Below, piece after piece: positions 2,222-43,095 of a stretch of DNA of 43,095 nt (within the stretch, counting starts at the first letter, position 1; every line of letters starts with the position of its first letter). Origin of the DNA: a virus. The position numbers and the translations under genes are program-made. The notes beneath the pieces were generated by a model that was given only the letters and a program-made list of their open reading frames with translations, had not been told where the DNA came from and searched no databases. Where the stretch lies: the UHGV virus genome UHGV-1678524. One strand, given 5' to 3'.

Positions 2222-2917
2222 TCAATGTTTAACTAACATGGTTTTAATGTGTGGAAGGATTCTGTTTACCTTCTGAACATTCTTCTCTGTATCTTCTATA
2301 AAGCATACTATATTAAAGTAAGGAAGAATGCAAGACTGAATCATCCTAACTTTCAAACTTTCTGCATTTATAGAGTTAGTCCCAAAACCACGCATAAAAA
2401 GCATGTAATCATGCTCTATGTTATGCCTTAAAAACATCTCAGTAGGTATTCTCTGGGATTCACCTCTCGCTGTCAAGAGTCCAATGGCAGCGTGATTAGC
2501 AATTGCATCAATAATACTAAAAACATACGTTGGTTTTGCTCTTACAGAGTCAAGAAGATTAGTGTACTGTGAGAATGACCCGTCAGTCAATTCCGTTGAG
2601 CAATCTTCGTGATTAAAATTTGTAAGAACACCATCAATATCTGCTAAGATGAGGTTACCTTTTTCTACTAGGTCTTTATTGACTATGACTAAACTGTCAC
2701 GTCTTACACCTATAGATTGTCCAGTCTCTTTGTCCACAACGTTCACAATCGGTTCTGGTGTGTGGAACTCTTCAAGTGAACATACAACTTCTCTTGCAGT
2801 GTCTTCAAAATCCCTGCACTGTTCTGGAGTCCATATACAGGAATCAAGACCTAACTCATGAGGATGCAAGTCGTAAGCATGACACAGTACTTCATCAGAC
2901 TTTCTTAATTTTTTCAT
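2222..2917 (-). CDS. Putative HAD-superfamily hydrolase domain protein (possible nucleotidase/phosphatase)
   Basis: LILADIDGVLTNF resembles HAD motif I (DxDGT/V). Confidence 0.3.
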   Translation of the reverse strand: MKKLRKSDEVLCHAYDLHPHELGLDSCIWTPEQCRDFEDTAREVVCSLEEFHTPEPIVNVVDKETGQSIGVRRDSLVIVNKDLVEKGNLILADIDGVLTNFNHEDCSTELTDGSFSQYTNLLDSVRAKPTYVFSIIDAIANHAAIGLLTARGESQRIPTEMFLRHNIEHDYMLFMRGFGTNSINAESLKVRMIQSCILPYFNIVCFIEDTEKNVQKVNRILPHIKTMLVKH

Positions 2918-3443
2918 GATTTACCTTAGAAATGTTTGTTGCAAATTCACATTGAGCAATGACTTTCATATTGTTATAGACATCTTGAGAGTATTTCTTA
3001 GCTTTAGGAATTTTGTACGAATACCCAGCATTATATGATGCTAAAACTTTTTGTAAAGTCTTCTTTGACTTTGGCTGACCATGTACCTTCGTCCAAAATT
3101 CAAGCTCTTTGTGTGTTTCCTTTGCAGCATAGTCAAAATCTTTTAAGAGTTTCTTTTTAGCCACATTAGGACTGATTTTGTTACGCTTTACAACAGTCTT
3201 CAAGTGATTCTGGAAGATACCATAATCATGTGTCTTTTTATTCTCTACATTCAGACCTAACTCTGACTCTTGTAAGGCTATAGCAGCTAGAGTGATACCC
3301 CAACCTTTACCCATATTATTCTCACCATACTGGTAAGCTTTTAACATGTTTACTTTTTGGCTAATTGATAGCTCTGGGCAGTCAACTGCATAAGATAAGT
3401 GTGCTGTAAACATTAAGCACAAACCTAGAATCAACTTCTTCAT
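2895..3443 (-). CDS. Lytic transglycosylase (SLT domain) with N-terminal signal peptide; candidate secreted endolysin or murein hydrolase
   Basis: MKKLILGLCLMFTAHLSYA signal peptide; SLT-like motifs ALQESELG, DYGIFQ, SYNAGYS. Confidence 0.55.
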   Translation of the reverse strand: MKKLILGLCLMFTAHLSYAVDCPELSISQKVNMLKAYQYGENNMGKGWGITLAAIALQESELGLNVENKKTHDYGIFQNHLKTVVKRNKISPNVAKKKLLKDFDYAAKETHKELEFWTKVHGQPKSKKTLQKVLASYNAGYSYKIPKAKKYSQDVYNNMKVIAQCEFATNISKVNHEKIKKV

Positions 3444-4738: not shown

Positions 4739-7099
4739 TTAAATTGTAGTTCCTTCTGGAACACACTTCACATCAAAGCCTAAGAACTTACTCACCTCAA
4801 TAGGTGACACTTTATTCCAATCTAAATGAGAAAGCAAGAAGTTTTCTTGTTTTCTTTTTGAAAGATAGTTTGTCACCTTGATGACCATACGGTCACCAGC
4901 TTTCTTAATTTTCTTGTACAGCTTTGTATCGTTGTCAAGGCATTCTTTCAAAGTTTGCAACCTACTAATAGTGTAAGTGTATGCAAACGGTGCAGCAACG
5001 TATTGGATTTTACCAAACATTGCCTCAACAGCATCTTCATTACCTTCTAAGAAGATAGTTTTGTTTGTGTCTCGTGAATAGCAATAACCACGAGAAATCT
5101 TCCTGTTATTGAACGTAAAGTTTCTGGCAATAATCCAACTACTTGTCAGGTCTAGGACACCATTCATATAGATACGTGTCATATACCTGTTATGATTAAT
5201 CCAGTGAACATCAGTTAAGCTGTCGTTCAAGAGCCTCTCATCTACTTCAATCCAGTCTTCTGGTATCTTTTTCCAATTTGCTTTTCGGAAAACATAGACT
5301 GTCTTTCCAATGACATTGGCAACTGACTTAGCTACATCATCTGGAGATGAGCAAAAACATTCACCATCAACAGTATCACCTACTGCCTTGATATAAATCT
5401 GAGGCTCTTCAATTGTGTCTAAGTCTTCTGACACCTCTGTGTATGAAGCTACACCTTCTGCTGGAACAGCTTTCCAGAGTTTTACAACACCTCTTACAGC
5501 TTCTTTACGTTGATAATGGTGTTCCTTATCAGACATCTTCACAATCTTTAACAAGCTTTTATCAAGTTTGTGTAGATTGATTAGGTCGTCTAACTCTTTT
5601 TCAGTCGAGAATACAAAGACAATACCATTGTATCTGTGAAACATACTTGACTCACTGGCATAGTCTCGACATGCACCACGCAAGATTTGATTGCGTCCTA
5701 CAGTCTTCTCAGTACCGTTTTTATTGCGACGGTCATTTATAACAAACAAAAACTGTTCAATTTGGCTTTTACGCATTGCGCCAAAGATATTGAACATACT
5801 TGCCTCTTGAGTGTAGGAAAGTGCTGTTGCACGAATCTTACTTTCTAAAGAGTTAAACTTAACATAAGCAACTGGGTCATAAAGATAATCTACTTTAGGG
5901 ATATTGTTTCCGTTCCTGTCAACCTTAATATTACCCTTACCATCACGTTCATAGATGACTGAGCCGTCTTCTGCGTAGATAATTCCACGACGAATGTTTA
6001 GTAATTCTTCTTCCAGAGAATCAAGCTTAACACCTCCCCACTCTAGCTTTGGACACACAGCATTAAACATCTCTCGTGAGTTCAAACGTAACTCAGCATA
6101 AGCCTGTGCAGCATCCATGAGTGTAGGTTGGTTATTAACTTTCTTGATAACATCCTTTGTAATTGCTTCAGTTATCTTTTTAGTAGCCTCAATGATAACA
6201 TTTTTTGTCGTGTCATTCATCTGCAATGCTTCACGAGAAGCTGCAATAGCAACTGAACCAATAGGCATGTAGATGTTTACAAGGTCTACGCTCCTACGGA
6301 AAAATTCTGGTAAGACTTTGAAGAAATCATCACCAAGTAATGCTTCCATATTCACTGGATAGGCAATATTACCCATCACCACATTAAACTCTGTCCTGTT
6401 AGCACCAGAACGCCAGCTTTGCTTATGAATCATGGCATCATAAACACCTTCTTCACGGGCAATGACATTCATATCTGCTAATACATCGTCATACTCGATA
6501 TTACTTTCTGGTTTTACAGCAAAGTATGAGTATACGTGACCAGCCTCTTCAAAGAACTTTGAGATACGATGGTCAGCAACTGCTACACGTACAGCTAAAC
6601 CATTAGGCTCTTTTGTTGGGTTGGTGGTCAGCTTAGTTACTTGAGGGATACCATTCTCAAGGTAAACAGAGTACTTATTAACAACACCATCAACATAGCT
6701 AGATACTGTGAATGACTGAGCAATTGCAAATGGGGATTTTGAGCCGATACCCATTGCACCAATGTAGTCATTAGAGTCATTCTTCGTAGAAGCCCCGTAG
6801 TTTAGGTACAAACTCATAACTTTATCATGAGTTAATCCAGTTCCAAAATCACGAACTTCAAAGTAAGGCTCAAAACGAGTAGGTAAATGCACATGGAACG
6901 GAATGTTCTCTTTTCCAGCCTCTTTCTGAGCATCTACTGCGTTACATGACAGTTCACGAATAACTGCCCTTTCTTTAAAGGTGTATACACCAGAACTCAA
7001 AAGGCTGAACATTTCGGGTGTCATTGTAATCTGTGCTTGAGACGTCTCTAAAGAAGTTGAACTCTTAATCACTTCTGCGTGGTCATTTACCATGCGCAT
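4739..7099 (-). CDS. rIIA: rIIA-like protein with N-terminal GHKL/Bergerat-fold ATPase domain
   Basis: 786 aa; N-box-like ERAVIRELSCNAVDA and G1-box-like VRDFGTGL; T4 rIIA has this domain. Confidence 0.6.
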   Translation of the reverse strand: MRMVNDHAEVIKSSTSLETSQAQITMTPEMFSLLSSGVYTFKERAVIRELSCNAVDAQKEAGKENIPFHVHLPTRFEPYFEVRDFGTGLTHDKVMSLYLNYGASTKNDSNDYIGAMGIGSKSPFAIAQSFTVSSYVDGVVNKYSVYLENGIPQVTKLTTNPTKEPNGLAVRVAVADHRISKFFEEAGHVYSYFAVKPESNIEYDDVLADMNVIAREEGVYDAMIHKQSWRSGANRTEFNVVMGNIAYPVNMEALLGDDFFKVLPEFFRRSVDLVNIYMPIGSVAIAASREALQMNDTTKNVIIEATKKITEAITKDVIKKVNNQPTLMDAAQAYAELRLNSREMFNAVCPKLEWGGVKLDSLEEELLNIRRGIIYAEDGSVIYERDGKGNIKVDRNGNNIPKVDYLYDPVAYVKFNSLESKIRATALSYTQEASMFNIFGAMRKSQIEQFLFVINDRRNKNGTEKTVGRNQILRGACRDYASESSMFHRYNGIVFVFSTEKELDDLINLHKLDKSLLKIVKMSDKEHHYQRKEAVRGVVKLWKAVPAEGVASYTEVSEDLDTIEEPQIYIKAVGDTVDGECFCSSPDDVAKSVANVIGKTVYVFRKANWKKIPEDWIEVDERLLNDSLTDVHWINHNRYMTRIYMNGVLDLTSSWIIARNFTFNNRKISRGYCYSRDTNKTIFLEGNEDAVEAMFGKIQYVAAPFAYTYTISRLQTLKECLDNDTKLYKKIKKAGDRMVIKVTNYLSKRKQENFLLSHLDWNKVSPIEVSKFLGFDVKCVPEGTTI

Positions 7100-7127: not shown

Positions 7128-7304
7128 TTACTTATTAAACATTTTACCAGAACCACCACATATAGGGCAACAGCCTGTTCTTGTATAACCTTCCCCATTA
7201 CAGAAGTCACATTTTTTGTGCTCTGCATAGTACTTGCAAAGAAGGTAAACGAACACTGCTACACTACCAAGTGACAGTAAAATTTCTATCCAATATGCTT
7301 GCAT
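7128..7304 (-). CDS. Small membrane protein with DnaJ-type CxxCxGxG zinc-finger-like C-terminus (58 aa, absent from ORF track)
   Basis: Manual translation: MQAYWIEILLSLGSVAVFVYLLCKYYAEHKKCDFCNGEGYTRTGCCPICGGSGKMFNK; fills the gap between rIIA-like gene and 7286-7633. Confidence 0.3.
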   Translation of the reverse strand: MQAYWIEILLSLGSVAVFVYLLCKYYAEHKKCDFCNGEGYTRTGCCPICGGSGKMFNK

Positions 7305-7633
7305 GACTCACCTCTCATATTCTTGTAAAGGATGAAGCTTCTATCATGGACGATACTTGTAGACACTGCAAAGTTACTTTCAAGTATCTGTTTGTTTGGA
7401 TTGTAGAAGCTTTCTTTAAACTCGTCAAGTGCAAATTGGTGATTGTCTGGAAGACCTTTTACACAGACCTTTATTGTAATTGCTGCTGCAACCTTGCCAG
7501 TCAGTTCTTCTTTAGCTGCTACTAAGATTTTGTTGATGAACTTATGACCATTTTCAGGCTTCTTGATGTTCTCCCATCGCTCTTCTAAGACAATATTGAT
7601 GTTCATTTCTTTGATTTTCATAATTTTCACCAA
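7286..7633 (-). CDS. Hypothetical protein
   Basis: 115-aa ORF, co-oriented. Confidence 0.35.
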   Translation of the reverse strand: MVKIMKIKEMNINIVLEERWENIKKPENGHKFINKILVAAKEELTGKVAAAITIKVCVKGLPDNHQFALDEFKESFYNPNKQILESNFAVSTSIVHDRSFILYKNMRGESCKHIG

Positions 7634-38206: not shown

Positions 38207-39106
38207 ATGTCACAAGCTGATTTGAGCTACAAAAATATTCTGAACCATGTTTTATCCGTTGGTGAACTGCGTACTACACGAACTGGAGATGTTATCTCTG
38301 CATTTGCTCCACCAAAATTTCGTTTTGATATGCGTACTGGTTTCCCACTCTTAACATCTAAACAGGTGTTTACACGGCAAGTTATTGGGGAAGCTTTATG
38401 GTTCCTGAATGGTGAGAATAAACTTGGTGAACTCCGTTATCGCACTTGGGGTGAAAATGATGGGGAACGCTGGACTATCTGGTCAGATGATTTTAAACGC
38501 TGGTTAAGCTCTAATTATTCTTCTGAACAAGATTGGTTAGAAGATGCAGGCGGGAGAATCTACGGTGTTCAGTGGAGAAACTTTGAAGGTCATAATGGTT
38601 GTGTTGTAGACCAGTTAGAGACCTTAGTAGCGAAGATGAAAGGTGATATCACAGACCGCTACATGCTTGTTAATGCTTGGAATGCAGCAGATATTGCAGC
38701 TAACTCGATGGCTTTAGCACCTTGCCATGTTCTGTTTCAGATTTATATCACTAACGAAGGTGAAGTTGACTTACAATGGTATCAACGTTCTGTAGACACC
38801 TTTTTAGGACTTCCATTTAATATTGCGTCTTATGGTTTTATTCTGGAAGTTCTTTGTAAGATGACTGGATACACACCACGATACTTGATAGGTGTCTTTG
38901 GGGATACTCAGATTTATCAGAATCATATGAAGCAGGTTTATGAACTGATGAACAACGAAGAGTTCCATGCACCTACTTTTGAGATTGGTGTACCACTTAA
39001 CACTTTAAGTGACTTAAAACATCTTACTGCAAGTGACTTTATTGGTGGCATTAACAACTACCAACATGCAGGAAAGATTGAAGCACCTTTGTCAGTAGGT
39101 AAGTAA
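38207..39106 (+). CDS. td: Thymidylate synthase
   Basis: RTGDVISAFAPPKFRFDMRTGFPLLTSK (cf. ThyA [28 protein letters not shown]) and active-site PCH in APCHVLFQIY. Confidence 0.85.
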   Translation: MSQADLSYKNILNHVLSVGELRTTRTGDVISAFAPPKFRFDMRTGFPLLTSKQVFTRQVIGEALWFLNGENKLGELRYRTWGENDGERWTIWSDDFKRWLSSNYSSEQDWLEDAGGRIYGVQWRNFEGHNGCVVDQLETLVAKMKGDITDRYMLVNAWNAADIAANSMALAPCHVLFQIYITNEGEVDLQWYQRSVDTFLGLPFNIASYGFILEVLCKMTGYTPRYLIGVFGDTQIYQNHMKQVYELMNNEEFHAPTFEIGVPLNTLSDLKHLTASDFIGGINNYQHAGKIEAPLSVGK

Positions 39107-39107
39107 A

Positions 39108-39148
39108 ACAAAAAAGGCTCCCGTAAGAAGGAGCCTTAAAATTTTATT
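39108..39148. terminator. Bidirectional rho-independent terminator between convergent gene blocks
   Basis: AAGGCTCC-cgtaagaa-GGAGCCTT at 39114-39137 flanked by an A-run upstream and T-run downstream. Confidence 0.55.
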
Positions 39149-39515
39149 TTTCAGTATTCTTTGTGTTCTTCTCAGTAATAGCTTGGAGGGCTGATACTGA
39201 TTGAGCCAGATTATTCACACTGTCAGAGAATTTATCAAGAGTTTTGGTAAGTTTTGCATTCTCACCCTTAACATTCTCTAACTGAACTTTCTGGTTCTCC
39301 ATCCCTAGCTGAATCAGTCTCATGTCAGACTGTAAATCACGAATAGCTGAATAGTTACTTTTGGAATAATTATCTAGCTGCTGTAACTTTGTTGTGACAG
39401 ACACTTCTTGCTTACCACTTGAAACTTGCATAGTGGTATACATCCCAATAACACTAAAAATACCAACTACAATTGCACCAATATTATTTTTAAAAGCTTC
39501 CTCTAGCCACTTCAT
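39144..39515 (-). CDS. Membrane protein with N-terminal TM helix and coiled-coil region (holin- or spanin-like candidate)
   Basis: NNIGAIVVGIFSVIGMYTTM hydrophobic segment then heptad-rich polar sequence. Confidence 0.3.
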   Translation of the reverse strand: MKWLEEAFKNNIGAIVVGIFSVIGMYTTMQVSSGKQEVSVTTKLQQLDNYSKSNYSAIRDLQSDMRLIQLGMENQKVQLENVKGENAKLTKTLDKFSDSVNNLAQSVSALQAITEKNTKNTEK

Positions 39516-39710
39516 TTATTTCTCCCCCTTAAAAGCTTTTTCTAAGTTATCTACGAACTCATCATCAATAGGCGTGTCTGTTTTACTCGCAAGGTATCTT
39601 GCAAGCTTAAAGAACACTTTCTCAATCATGTATTCACTTAGAAGGGATAAAATGAGTTTCCAGAAGAAGCTACCTAGATTTTTTAGAAGAATTGCTAGGA
39701 TTGTAGGCAT
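39516..39710 (-). CDS. Small hydrophobic protein
   Basis: 64 aa, hydrophobic N-terminal half. Confidence 0.3.
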   Translation of the reverse strand: MPTILAILLKNLGSFFWKLILSLLSEYMIEKVFFKLARYLASKTDTPIDDEFVDNLEKAFKGEK

Positions 39711-39789
39711 TTAATCACCTCATCAGCCAAGATGGTGAGAATACCCATAAAGAATATTAACACCATCTTAACAATCAGTCAACAATGGA

Positions 39790-42321
39790 TTAAGCAGTTC
39801 TTACCCAAGCCATTAACTTGTAGAACTGGTTAGTAACGCTAAATGCTGACCCAGAACCTGCACCACCAGTGTTACCACTTACTGTATGGCTGTGAGCACC
39901 AATACCAACACTGTGAGCATGGTCACCAGCATAGGCGGCAGTACCACTAATTGAATGCGCGTGGTCACCACCCCCATCAGTGTAACCCGGACCTGTACCG
40001 ATTCTACCACCACCACCACCAGAATAGTGTGTAGAGTTCTGACCAATCCACGAGATAGCGTGGTTGTGGTGACCAGCAGATGAAGTAGAGCCACTTACAG
40101 AGTGAGCGTGAGAACCAGTCGTGTTAGTGCTTTTTGTTCCGTAGTCAAAAGATGAAGTGGTAGCAGAAAAACTGTGCGTGTGTGAAGGCAAGTTCCCAAC
40201 AGCTAACGTCACAGAGTCTGAACCACCAGTTGTAGCAACATCTGAACCATTTGCTGCTGCAATTCTGATAGTTCTACCAACACCATTGTTGAGGTACGTC
40301 CAAGTTAGACCAGGCAGTGCTGTATTAGGGTCAACATTACTGTTAAACCATGTCACAATACCCACTGGATAGATTTTATTAAGGTCTGTAGAGTCACTTA
40401 CTGCCTGTGCAATCTTCTGGTCAGTTTCAGCTTTAGTGTATGCACCAATATCTGAAGGGGTTGGCTTCAAGAGACTAGTGTAATAGTAAGCAAGTATACC
40501 AGCAACATAGCCATCCGGAGCGGTATCGGATGTCTCTGGAGTCTCAAACAGTTGTACTGTTGCATTAGATGATGACTGAACCCTAGCTGTCGTAGCGTTT
40601 TGGTAGTTACCAACTACGCAATAAATGTCATAGTTATCACCAGATGTATTAACATACCCAATTTGATTTACAACATAATTTGGTGAGTTTTTCCATGCGA
40701 CAACATTTAAGCCTTTCGGTCTACCATTTCCTGCTCTGAGAACAATTTCCGTTTTACAAGCTTGGTCAACTATACCGTAGTTGAACCCAGACCCACCAAA
40801 CAGTTCAATCACTGCTGTTGATGTGCCTTGCGGCATATTAACAGTGGCAATTTTAGCCCATTTATTAACACCACTAGTATTGAATCCAGTGCTTCTTACT
40901 CTCAGATATCTATTATCGGCAGAAGTTTTATTATAATATCTGTCGTCAATGTTACTCCAATCAGAAGGTTGAACTCGACCATTGATTCTAACAGTTTTAT
41001 TTAGAAAAAAGCCATCTTGCATAAAAAGAGTGGTCCCAGTTTTATCATTGTGGATAATGAGTTTAGATGGGTTTTCTCTCTCGCCATTCCCGATGAACCA
41101 CCTTCTCACATTATCAGCGTTATAACCAGCAAAGTATAGTGCATTATCCTGAACAGTGTTTCTTAGCTGTAACGATAGGTCATCTTGGGTAATAACTTGT
41201 GTAGACCTGAAAATGTTCATGTTACTGAGTTTAGCAAGATTACTCAAAGTTCCTGCTGGAATGTATCTAGAATCAATGTTAGTCCAGTCAGAAGGTTGTA
41301 CTTGACCAGTGATTTTGACAGTCTTACTAAATGTTACACCAGACGCGTTTAATTTAATGGAAGTGTCCCCCTTGTAATCATAAATTGTGATATTAGAGGT
41401 TACATCACCTTTACCAATATACCACAAATTATTGTTTTCACTGTCCTTTGCTAGGATGAACAGAGTCTCATTGACCGTTTTATTTTTTAGAGTGATAGCA
41501 GCACCATCAGAGTTCACATTGACATTATTACTGAATGTGTTTAAACCACTGAAGGTATTATTACCAACTAGCTGCGCAAATCTCTGATTAGCTGCTGTCT
41601 GAGTAAAGTATCTAGCATCTAAGTTAGAGAAGTCAGAAGGCTGAACTTGACCAGTGATTGCTAAAGACTTATTAACAGAGATATTGCTTGCAACAATCAC
41701 TGCTGAGTTGTATTTGCTGTTATACAGGCTTACTGCATCCTCGCCATTGCTACCAATACCAACCCACCATCTAGCTGAACCATCTAGGTTTACACCCTCA
41801 ATGTATTGTGCATTATTTGCAATCTGGTTTCTAAGGCGAAGTGCATTACCATCACTTTGAATGTTCTGATTTCTAGAGAATGTGTTTGTTACAGCAAGCC
41901 TTGCATATCTTGCATCGTTCTCTTCATTGGTTCTCATTCCAAGCTCATTAGGACTTGGCTTATTCAAAGTGTGGTAAACAGTTGCAGACCTTGAAGCATC
42001 TGCAATAGTTAGTCTAAGACCGTTTGCGTTGATTTTAAAAGTCTTTAAAACATCCCCCATAGTAATCTCAGAAGAGTCTGTAGGGTCAAATACGGCCTTA
42101 CCACCATAAAGTAACTTGACAATTCCTAAGTCACCCGTCATAGTGCTACCAGCAATCTGGACAAATCTTTCTAGTTTAAAAGATGCTAAGAAGTCTTGAT
42201 AGGTCATTCGACGGTCTTCATCACCCAGCATTTCAGGTCTCTTTTTAACCCTGACATGAAGAAGGTCGTCTGAACGAATTGTATCAATTGAGTTTAATTC
42301 ACTCAACTTGTAATCTGCCAT
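39790..42321 (-). CDS. Tail fibre protein with internal tandem domain repeats and His-rich C-terminal receptor-binding-type domain
   Basis: 843 aa; repeated GQVQPSD(F/W)(S/T)N(L/I)DxRY modules; C-terminal HxH-rich segment (HTHS, HAHS, HHNH, DHAHS, AHSHT) ending AFSV...WVRTA. Confidence 0.7.
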   Translation of the reverse strand: MADYKLSELNSIDTIRSDDLLHVRVKKRPEMLGDEDRRMTYQDFLASFKLERFVQIAGSTMTGDLGIVKLLYGGKAVFDPTDSSEITMGDVLKTFKINANGLRLTIADASRSATVYHTLNKPSPNELGMRTNEENDARYARLAVTNTFSRNQNIQSDGNALRLRNQIANNAQYIEGVNLDGSARWWVGIGSNGEDAVSLYNSKYNSAVIVASNISVNKSLAITGQVQPSDFSNLDARYFTQTAANQRFAQLVGNNTFSGLNTFSNNVNVNSDGAAITLKNKTVNETLFILAKDSENNNLWYIGKGDVTSNITIYDYKGDTSIKLNASGVTFSKTVKITGQVQPSDWTNIDSRYIPAGTLSNLAKLSNMNIFRSTQVITQDDLSLQLRNTVQDNALYFAGYNADNVRRWFIGNGERENPSKLIIHNDKTGTTLFMQDGFFLNKTVRINGRVQPSDWSNIDDRYYNKTSADNRYLRVRSTGFNTSGVNKWAKIATVNMPQGTSTAVIELFGGSGFNYGIVDQACKTEIVLRAGNGRPKGLNVVAWKNSPNYVVNQIGYVNTSGDNYDIYCVVGNYQNATTARVQSSSNATVQLFETPETSDTAPDGYVAGILAYYYTSLLKPTPSDIGAYTKAETDQKIAQAVSDSTDLNKIYPVGIVTWFNSNVDPNTALPGLTWTYLNNGVGRTIRIAAANGSDVATTGGSDSVTLAVGNLPSHTHSFSATTSSFDYGTKSTNTTGSHAHSVSGSTSSAGHHNHAISWIGQNSTHYSGGGGGRIGTGPGYTDGGGDHAHSISGTAAYAGDHAHSVGIGAHSHTVSGNTGGAGSGSAFSVTNQFYKLMAWVRTA

Positions 42322-42335
42322 TATAAATTTTCCTC

Positions 42336-42360
42336 TAAAAAGGGGCTATACAGCCCCTGT
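42336..42360 (-). terminator. Hairpin plus U-tract between the two tail-fibre genes
   Basis: GGGGCT-atac-AGCCCC at 42342-42357; minus transcript followed by UUUUUAGAGGAAAA (includes the RBS of the 843-aa gene). Confidence 0.4.
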
Positions 42361-42367
42361 AAAGAAA

Positions 42368-43071
42368 TTAAGCTGTTCTCTGCCATACATACAATACGAA
42401 GGATGGCTGTTCAACACTAAATGCTTGACCAGAACCAGTTGGACCAGTTGTGCCAGAGTGCGAATGCTCACCTGCTCCGGTTACTGTTACTGTTGCTGAG
42501 TGGCTGTGGGAACCAATTGCAACAGAATGGCTGTGAGCACCAATACCAACCGTATGATTATGCGCACCAATTGCTACAGAGTGAGTGTGGTTGTTAGCTG
42601 TTGTCAACGTAGCTCTTGGGTCATAGCTTGCCCCCTCAACCGATAAACCTCTCCAGCCACCATCATCATAGCCACGGTTAATGAATGTTGTTTGTGTTAA
42701 GCCAGCGGCACTTGTTGTTCTGTTGCCATAGTCGTAAGTAGATACGGTCTTGGTTCCGTAGTCAAACGTTGTAGTCCCTTTAGTGCCATAATCAAAAGCA
42801 CTGATAGAGGCCGTTGCACCATGAGTGTGACCACCACCAGTGACATACACTGAGTGGGTATGTGCAGGGATGTTATTAACCGTCAGTGCAGTAGTCTGTG
42901 AACCAAACGTTGAACCAACTGGCCTAGAATCACTATCATAACCTACAAGTGCTCTCCCTTTTGAGACTAACTCCCAAGTACCTCCACAAATTAAATATGT
43001 AGAAGGGTTTGCAGAGTTCATGGAAAGATGGATAGTACCTACTGGATAGGAAGCCTGAACAGCCTTGTACA
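42368..43071 (-). CDS. Tail fibre protein, C-terminal fragment; 5' end truncated by the contig/adapter boundary
   Basis: Shares the C-terminal domain with the 843-aa fibre (YPVG..., FDYGTK, HxH repeats, GSGQAFSV...WQRTA); track start codon is a TTG artefact and upstream sequence is adapter. Confidence 0.6.
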
Positions 43072-43095
43072 AGATCGGAAGAGCACACGTCTGAA
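43072..43095. other. Illumina TruSeq adapter remnant (sequencing/assembly artefact)
   Basis: AGATCGGAAGAGCACACGTCTGAA matches the start of the TruSeq read-1 adapter AGATCGGAAGAGCACACGTCTGAACTCCAGTCA. Confidence 0.85.

Follow-up and report, generated by a model that had tools for sequence, protein, structure and literature searches.

Tail fibers of Felix O1-like myoviruses have been described in several phages. In the genome paper on Felix O1 (2010) the C-termini of both gp76 and gp77 were reported to resemble T4 gp37 (PMC3185647), and the paper on VpaE1 (2015) described the same for gp74 and gp75, with conserved N-termini and variable C-termini, the C-terminus of gp75 being 54% identical to the adhesin of the T4 long tail fiber (PMC4690856). 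In a cryo-electron microscopy (cryo-EM) study of Sf14 (2025), a gp10-C-like domain was described in one of the two fibers and a gp37-like tip in the other, while homologues of chaperones were not found (PMC11821841). Finally, in the cryo-EM map of Bas63 (Sci Adv 2025) the short tail fiber (STF) gp26 measures 430 Angstrom and the long tail fiber (LTF) gp27, 630 Angstrom; both are placed on the baseplate, a collar, a needle carrying HxH motifs, and a head being distinguished in each, and the variability of fiber tips across the genus is high (PMC12609058).

Here we analyze the homology, motif layout, orthology and mosaicism of a pair of fiber genes at the end of the UHGV virus genome UHGV-1678524, a contig of 43,095 nucleotides (nt), hereafter the window. 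Very probably, the late structural operon of a Felix O1-like phage terminates in these two fiber genes, STF followed by LTF, both proteins having gp37-type tips. The presence of gp37-like C-termini in both fibers is already known from the papers listed above, and in this respect our observation, though correct, repeats what has been documented before.

Identification of the fiber gene pair

Two adjacent open reading frames (ORFs) are called on the minus strand, one of 843 amino acids (aa), and the other, 42368..>43072, open at the window edge (Table 1). The contig ends in an untrimmed remnant of the TruSeq Read-1 adapter, and BLAST similarity to related genomes ends at position 43073. The STF gene is therefore truncated, being present on the contig by its 3' 705 nt only. 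The TTG codon which could be taken for the start of the fragment is spurious, as the contig end cuts the gene and the N-terminal 148 aa lie beyond it; below, STF positions are given in residues of the fragment. A preliminary description of this locus placed the fragment downstream of the 843-aa gene, while on the minus strand it is situated upstream, that is, 5' of it.

Megablast of the region 39000-43095 matched 258 phage records, almost all of them from Felixounavirus (phages of Escherichia, Salmonella, and Shigella), the best matches being Escherichia phages finno, momo, Barry, and JohannRWettstein (Bas63). Phage finno (MN850619) is also the best overall DNA match, with 94% coverage and 91.9% identity. 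Judging from these matches, the window is a part of a Felixounavirus genome, i.e., of a Felix O1-like myovirus. In complete relatives, the genes of dihydrofolate reductase and thymidylate synthase are followed on the opposite strand by a 123-aa ORF, a 64-aa ORF, the fibers (a “tail fiber” of 780-850 aa and a “tail fiber” of 382 aa), and baseplate genes, and the window keeps the identical order.

The assignment of both genes to families agrees with this context. The LTF is 83% identical to the LTF of finno and 70% identical to that of Bas63, and matches phrog_4277 (“tail fiber protein”) over its full length with 1286 bits. It occupies the characteristic position between the STF and the small ORFs with thyA, and has a conserved N-terminus, a gp34-like repeat rod with three stretches of the Pfam family gp37_trimer PF20744 (E=2e-59), and a gp37-like tip. 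The available C-terminal 234 aa of the STF and its gene position match orthologues of Bas63 gp26, with identity of 229/234 to gp26 itself and 227/234 to finno_99, and its tip is 99.1% identical to that of humlepung.

For comparison we used 35 STF/LTF pairs, comprising 29 Ounavirinae loci from IMG/VR, five reference phages, and the window. The pair is present in all 35 of these Felixounavirus and Mooglevirus loci. Hence the comparison with fiber genes of related phages, proposed in the preliminary description, yields an orthologous STF/LTF pair throughout, with reshuffled cassettes (see below).

Homology of the two receptor-binding tips

The shared His-rich C-terminal domain noticed earlier is confirmed, and every motif listed for it has been found by regular expressions: YPVG (LTF aa 651, STF fragment aa 9), HTHS (LTF 714, STF 71 and 162), FDYGTK (LTF 725, STF 93 and 103, with YDYG at 113), AHSHT (LTF 809), HNHT (STF 171), HSHS (STF 180, 189, and 203), GSG(S/Q)AFSV (LTF 822, STF 213), and W(V/Q)RTA at both C-termini. 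The motif positions are collinear in the two proteins. Histidine constitutes 7.3% of the LTF tip and 6.6% of the STF tip, compared to 0.46% in the LTF outside its tip. Six HxH motifs are seen in the LTF (714, 738, 752 as HHNH, 787, 801, and 810), divided 3+3 around the head (aa 755-786), and seven in the STF fragment, divided 2+5 around the head (aa 116-161).

The C-termini are 31% identical over 246 alignment columns, with E=3e-16 in BLASTP with compositional adjustment. The Smith-Waterman score of tip against tip is 238, while 2000 composition-preserving shuffles yield the mean of 66.5 with standard deviation 10.7 and maximum 114, so that z=16. Calculated by parts, z equals 7.3 for the N-terminal collar, 7.2 for the needle with the head, and 12 for the C-terminal collar, both collars lacking His. 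As the shuffles score far lower and the His-free collars are significant on their own, the similarity of the tips reflects real homology rather than low-complexity bias.

How old this homology is bears on the possibility that a recent tandem duplication has produced two redundant fibers of the same specificity. Such an event would agree with the adjacency and common orientation of the genes and with the nearly identical heads of the two fibers in the Felix O1 clade, but we consider it improbable for the window. The two head segments cannot be aligned (the best 40-residue stretch has 45% identity and is located in the collar and needle), and the overall protein identity is as low as 31%. Moreover, each tip scores about equally against T4 gp37 or lambda Stf (60-79 bits) and against the other tip of the window (66-69 bits), and both paralogues are found with the same architecture in two genera. 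Given that both genes occur across Felixounavirus and Mooglevirus, the paralogy is old, and the tips are old paralogues, not products of a recent duplication. The suggestion that the phage carries two receptor-binding proteins built on a duplicated tip domain thus stands as far as paralogous gp37-type tips are concerned, by similarity to the T4 gp37 tip structure 2XGF and by the Bas63 cryo-EM, and is to be dropped in the sense of a recent duplication.

Relation to T4 gp37, gp10, and gp12

In phmmer searches against the Protein Data Bank (PDB), LTF aa 709-819 match 2XGF with E=7.9e-17, and STF fragment aa 5-204 match it with E=1.9e-11. A five-way alignment including Felix O1 and T4 gp37 retains as invariant YP.G, FDYGTK, V.IGAH.H.V, several of the H.H columns, and R.A at the terminus. 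The N-terminal part of the collar (YP.G...LP.H.HS) and the 22-aa C-terminal strand are conserved, and the sequence is compatible with a chain that returns to the collar, as reported for Bas63 (PMC12609058).

The window tips share with T4 gp37 (2XGF) and the C-terminus of lambda Stf the succession of collar, HxH needle, and head, as well as YP(I/V)G, FDYGTK, the GxHxHS repeats, and VGIGAH(S/T)HTV. On the other hand, the identity of ~38-50% is confined to the needle, the head sequences are different, and the C-terminal collar strand reads GSGxAFSV...RTA in the window as opposed to NIAFNYIVRLA. The setting differs too: T4 gp37 forms the distal quarter of a four-protein fiber, with the gene of the chaperone gp38 next to it, whereas in the window one polypeptide makes up a whole fiber.

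The second T4 protein to be considered is gp10, with its C-terminal domain (PF21939; 2FKK). The N-terminal part of both window collars matches this family, whereas gp10 itself has neither HxH needle nor head. For the STF, Gp10_C is the only Pfam match above the cut-off (73.1 bits with the gathering threshold 27), and T4 gp10 chains match the start of its collar at E ~1e-4 (2FKK); for the LTF, Gp10_C scores 24.7 bits, below the same cut-off of 27. One could therefore regard the STF as a gp10-type structural protein of the baseplate whose C-terminus is merely collar-like, in line with the annotation “baseplate wedge subunit and tail pin” in the Moogle relative. This seems very unlikely, since the gp10 match is confined to the first ~70 collar residues, while the match to the gp37 tip spans aa 5-204, and since in cryo-EM of Bas63 and Sf14 the orthologue is a 430-Angstrom fiber attached to the wedge and bearing a gp37-like tip.

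The preliminary description named both gp37 and gp12 as T4 counterparts. The former is upheld by the 2XGF matches; for the latter, PDB sequence searches returned no gp12 chain for either protein at E<=0.01, the T4 chains retrieved being those of gp37 and gp10. Sequence matches thus point to gp37 as the relevant T4 analogue, together with gp10_C for the collar.

The remaining explanations can be treated briefly. That the STF fragment is an assembly artefact, a misassembled or duplicated 3' end of the LTF gene, was allowed for in the preliminary description, and indeed the contig ends in adapter, where assembly may be imperfect, and the two regions share short repeats. We checked and excluded it, assigning it hardly any probability. 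Apart from these repeats, the two genes share just 43 nt at 84%, and their proteins are only 31% identical. Identity of the fragment to the STF genes of Bas63, finno, and humlepung reaches 98-99%, and its distance of 46 nt upstream of the LTF gene is the same as in every complete relative. Equally negligible is a purely compositional similarity of unrelated fibers with low-complexity tails rich in His, Gly, Ser, and Thr, which could be proposed in view of the repetitive, biased needle (the HMMER bias term is 26-34 bits), but is contradicted by the shuffling (maximum 114 against 238), the separately significant His-free collars, the compositionally adjusted BLASTP, and a motif order collinear with T4 gp37.

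Mosaic structure of the LTF

The LTF is composed of modules with different nearest relatives: finno for aa 1-345, none for aa 361-450, the IMG/VR loci L026, L023, and L027 for aa 471-632, and Bas63 together with locus L008 for aa 631-843, with conserved junctions between cassettes along this mosaic. In the N-terminal region (aa 1-135) the best-match identity is 97-100% per 30-aa window, and in most of these windows identity >=90% is reached by the majority of the 32 relatives (9-26 of 32). The three rod cassettes are joined by the conserved sequence “...ITGQVQPSDWSN(I/L)DxRY,” and the rod DNA contains a 71-nt direct repeat in three copies (40933, 41260, and 41605, with spacing of ~330-345 nt), corresponding to the gp37_trimer repeats. 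Among relatives, only finno matches rod cassettes 1-2 with 100% identity, and for cassette 3 (aa 361-450) no relative exceeds 73%.

The next module, aa 471-632, is 7-23% identical to the sequence in Bas63, 57-75% to finno, and 83-97% to L026, L023, and L027, and its aa 476-632 match phrog_21552, 3299, 11029, 22609, and 6722, which are fibers of unrelated phage groups. This module could be a candidate extra binding domain on the shaft. Single-sequence AlphaFold2 prediction for aa 469-639 yielded no usable fold (mean predicted local distance difference test score 38.6).

Comparison with the two closest described phages follows this pattern. Bas63 belongs to the same genus and has the same gene order, tip pair, and N-terminal LTF domain; its LTF tip is identical in 192/193 positions (99.5%), and the numbers of HxH motifs equal those in the window, seven in gp26 and six plus HHxH in gp27. 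In contrast, its LTF comprises 784 aa compared to 843 aa in the window, identity falls to 38-42% in rod cassette 1 (aa ~140-220) and to 60-82% in cassettes 2-3, and the module aa 471-632 is replaced by an unrelated sequence. The LTF of finno also has 843 aa, with 93-100% identity per 40-aa window in aa 1-345 (aa 121-240 being identical) and a module of the same type at aa 471-632, but its rod cassette 3 is 25-38% identical, the module 57-75%, and the tip 92%. As cassette 3, the module, and the tip diverge from finno, we consider the window phage a recombinant rather than a finno strain.

Exchange of needle and head cassettes among relatives

Among the 35 loci, the needle/head segments form ~17 clusters and 12 STF/LTF combinations, numbers that are approximate, as head types were clustered by single linkage at 60% with crude segment boundaries. 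Together with the mosaic LTF and its conserved junctions, this bears out the earlier proposal that the locus is a hotspot of domain swapping. The tip pair of the window is common to Bas63, finno, humlepung, and four IMG/VR contigs (L008-L011).

The Felix O1 clade of Salmonella phages presents a different situation. The gene pairs gp76/gp77 of Felix O1 and gp74/gp75 of VpaE1 are orthologous to that of the window, and yet both fibers of Felix O1-clade phages have one needle/head cassette in common. In Felix O1 itself (locus L004), the tips are 50% identical, and the shared head corresponds to 270 nt at 81% (2761-3030 and 5220-5489), compared to only 43 nt at 84% and unrelated heads in the window; the Felix O1 STF also has nine HxH motifs vs. 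seven in the window STF. In locus L028 the shared head is identical in 40/40 aa, with 200 nt at 91% (4748-4947 and 7207-7406). These shared heads indicate exchange between paralogues within one genome. Furthermore, in loci L015 and L019 the LTF head (containing SNTNAAGNHSHTFSF) is almost identical in sequence to that of T4 gp37, which indicates that cassettes have been exchanged between Ounavirinae and Tevenvirinae.

These comparisons support a tip organization in which conserved sequences of collar and needle surround variable needle/head cassettes, the latter being exchanged between phages, between the two fibers within a genome, and also with T-even phages. We see about even odds that the conserved DNA of the HxH needle and collar serves as a shared recombination scaffold for the movement of heads, allowing a switch between one-receptor and two-receptor states, with the window representing the latter. 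In the Ounavirinae fiber literature cited here we have found no statement of intragenomic head sharing. That some relatives bear the same head on both fibers, and the window phage does not, is the only mildly new point, and intragenomic head sharing is a modest extension of the known mosaicism of tail fibers.

Proposed architecture of the fibers and their receptors

Fiber placement, tip architecture, and dependence on the core of lipopolysaccharide (LPS) are taken here from papers on close relatives, and metal binding and the ligand of each fiber are inferred. Extrapolating from the homologous T4 gp37 and from the map of Bas63, both fibers would be homotrimers, each C-terminus forming a receptor-binding tip of the T4 gp37 type. 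The chain would pass from a globular collar (YPVG...) down a thin needle to a small distal head, and up the needle again into the collar (GSGxAFSV...WxRTA). As each of the three chains descends and returns, the needle would have six beta-strands. One HxH motif from each of three chains would provide six imidazoles in octahedral arrangement around one metal ion on the fiber axis; in the tip of T4 gp37, an interdigitated trimer, the metal is Fe2+ (as summarized in PMC12609058). The predicted number of metal sites is thus six for the LTF and seven for the STF; their role would probably be structural, in stapling the needle.

The head would contact the receptor, most likely the LPS core. LPS is a receptor in T4 (PMC4690856). 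Bas63 is entirely dependent on the intact LPS core (PMC8594841), which makes LPS core sugars the probable ligands. The PhageMaP preprint on essentiality in Bas63 (PMC11482910) contained nothing that we could find on gp26 or gp27. As the heads of the two window fibers are unrelated in sequence, the fibers probably recognize different surface features, which suggests two specificities.

Several considerations weigh against this scheme. Trimerization, the six-stranded needle, and metal binding are transferred from T4 gp37 and the Bas63 map, and in the latter the fiber density is too poor for side-chain modeling (PMC12609058). The STF has two HxH motifs on the descending and five on the ascending part, and so its needle may differ in detail from that of T4. 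The possible existence of two specificities is deduced from unrelated heads, in a genus whose fibers have no assigned receptors. Finally, folding of T4 gp37 requires gp38 and gp57A, and Pfam and PHROG searches of the adjacent ORFs recognized no chaperone gene of the gp38 or Tfa type beside the fiber genes, hence fiber assembly may differ from that in T4. An adjacent chaperone gene was treated here as a contextual trait, not as one defining the gp37-tip fold.

Features and surroundings of the fiber genes

Coordinates of all features are listed in Table 1; boundaries within the tips are approximate, as they are derived from the alignment to T4 gp37.

Table 1. Features of the fiber locus in the window (nt positions in the window; aa positions in the LTF or in the STF fragment).
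Feature	Position (nt)	Strand	Remarks
GC-rich perfect palindrome AAGGCTCC...GGAGCCTT	39114-39137	both	T-runs on both strands
Two small ORFs, 64 aa and 123 aa	39144..39710	-	3' of LTF, same orientation; N-terminal hydrophobic stretch in each
LTF gene	39790..42321	-	843 aa and stop; orthologues finno_98, Bas63 gp27, Felix O1 gp77
LTF aa 1-135, conserved N-terminal region	41917..42321	-	Baseplate-binding domain by homology to Bas63 gp27 (PMC12609058)
LTF aa 136-470, three variable rod cassettes	40912..41916	-	aa ~136-225, 241-345, 361-450; conserved junctions
LTF aa 471-632, module	40426..40911	-	Unrelated sequence at the same position in Bas63 gp27; common to fibers of other phages
LTF aa 651-843, receptor-binding tip	39793..40371	-	Predicted by 2XGF homology, HxH positions, alignment to T4 gp37
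LTF tip, collar			N part aa 651-710; C strand aa 822-843
LTF tip, needle			Descending aa 711-754 (HTH, HAH, HHNH); ascending aa 787-821 (HAH, HAH, HSH)
LTF tip, head			~aa 755-786
STF/LTF intergenic spacer, 46 nt	42322..42367	-	Hairpin GGGGCU-GUAU-AGCCCC, U-run, GAGG ribosome-binding site for LTF
STF gene, 3' part	42368..43071	-	C-terminal 234 aa (aa 149-382) of a 382-aa protein, and stop
STF tip, collar			Tip, fragment aa 9-234; collar N part aa 9-67; collar C strand aa 213-234
STF tip, needle			Descending aa 68-115 (HTH, HTH, three (F/Y)DYG repeats); ascending aa 162-212 (five HxH)
STF tip, head			~aa 116-161
Illumina TruSeq adapter remnant	43072..43095	+	24/24 nt exact match to AGATCGGAAGAGCACACGTCTGAA; non-phage sequence

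The spacer between the fiber genes folds with -19.3 kcal/mol (z=-1.9), and across 29 related loci the stem of its hairpin is kept, the loop is variable, and the U-run is not always kept. A consensus terminator scan did not flag this hairpin, and given also that z is only -1.9, we do not call it a terminator; it may rather be an element of mRNA processing or stability. In turn, the GC-rich palindrome located between the convergent thyA (plus strand) and the gene of the 123-aa ORF (minus strand) resembles a bidirectional intrinsic terminator at which the late fiber operon would end.

The two small ORFs match phrog_402 and phrog_4038, both of “unknown function,” and neither matches the Tfa or gp38 families in Pfam and PHROG. 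In relatives, the 123-aa ORF carries the annotation “holin,” given without evidence; in T4, the holin gene t lies shortly after genes 37 and 38.

No tRNA genes are present in positions 1-43095 of the window, which constitute a 43-kb half of the genome. As the Felix O1 genome has 22 tRNAs (PMC3185647), these genes must be situated on the missing part. The GC skew of the window changes sign near 29 kb and near 39 kb, tracking gene orientation.

Implications

For annotation, the results provide the label Felixounavirus, the gene names STF (partial) and LTF, and a reason to trim the adapter off the contig end. As the tip pair matches that of three phages isolated on E. coli K-12, namely Bas63, finno, and humlepung, the likely host is a rough E. 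coli with the K-12 core. The Bas63 structure can be used directly as a model for the window tips. On the whole, the result adds detail to an established picture and opens no new question, while the cassette map marks the places where fiber engineering or natural shifts of host range would occur.

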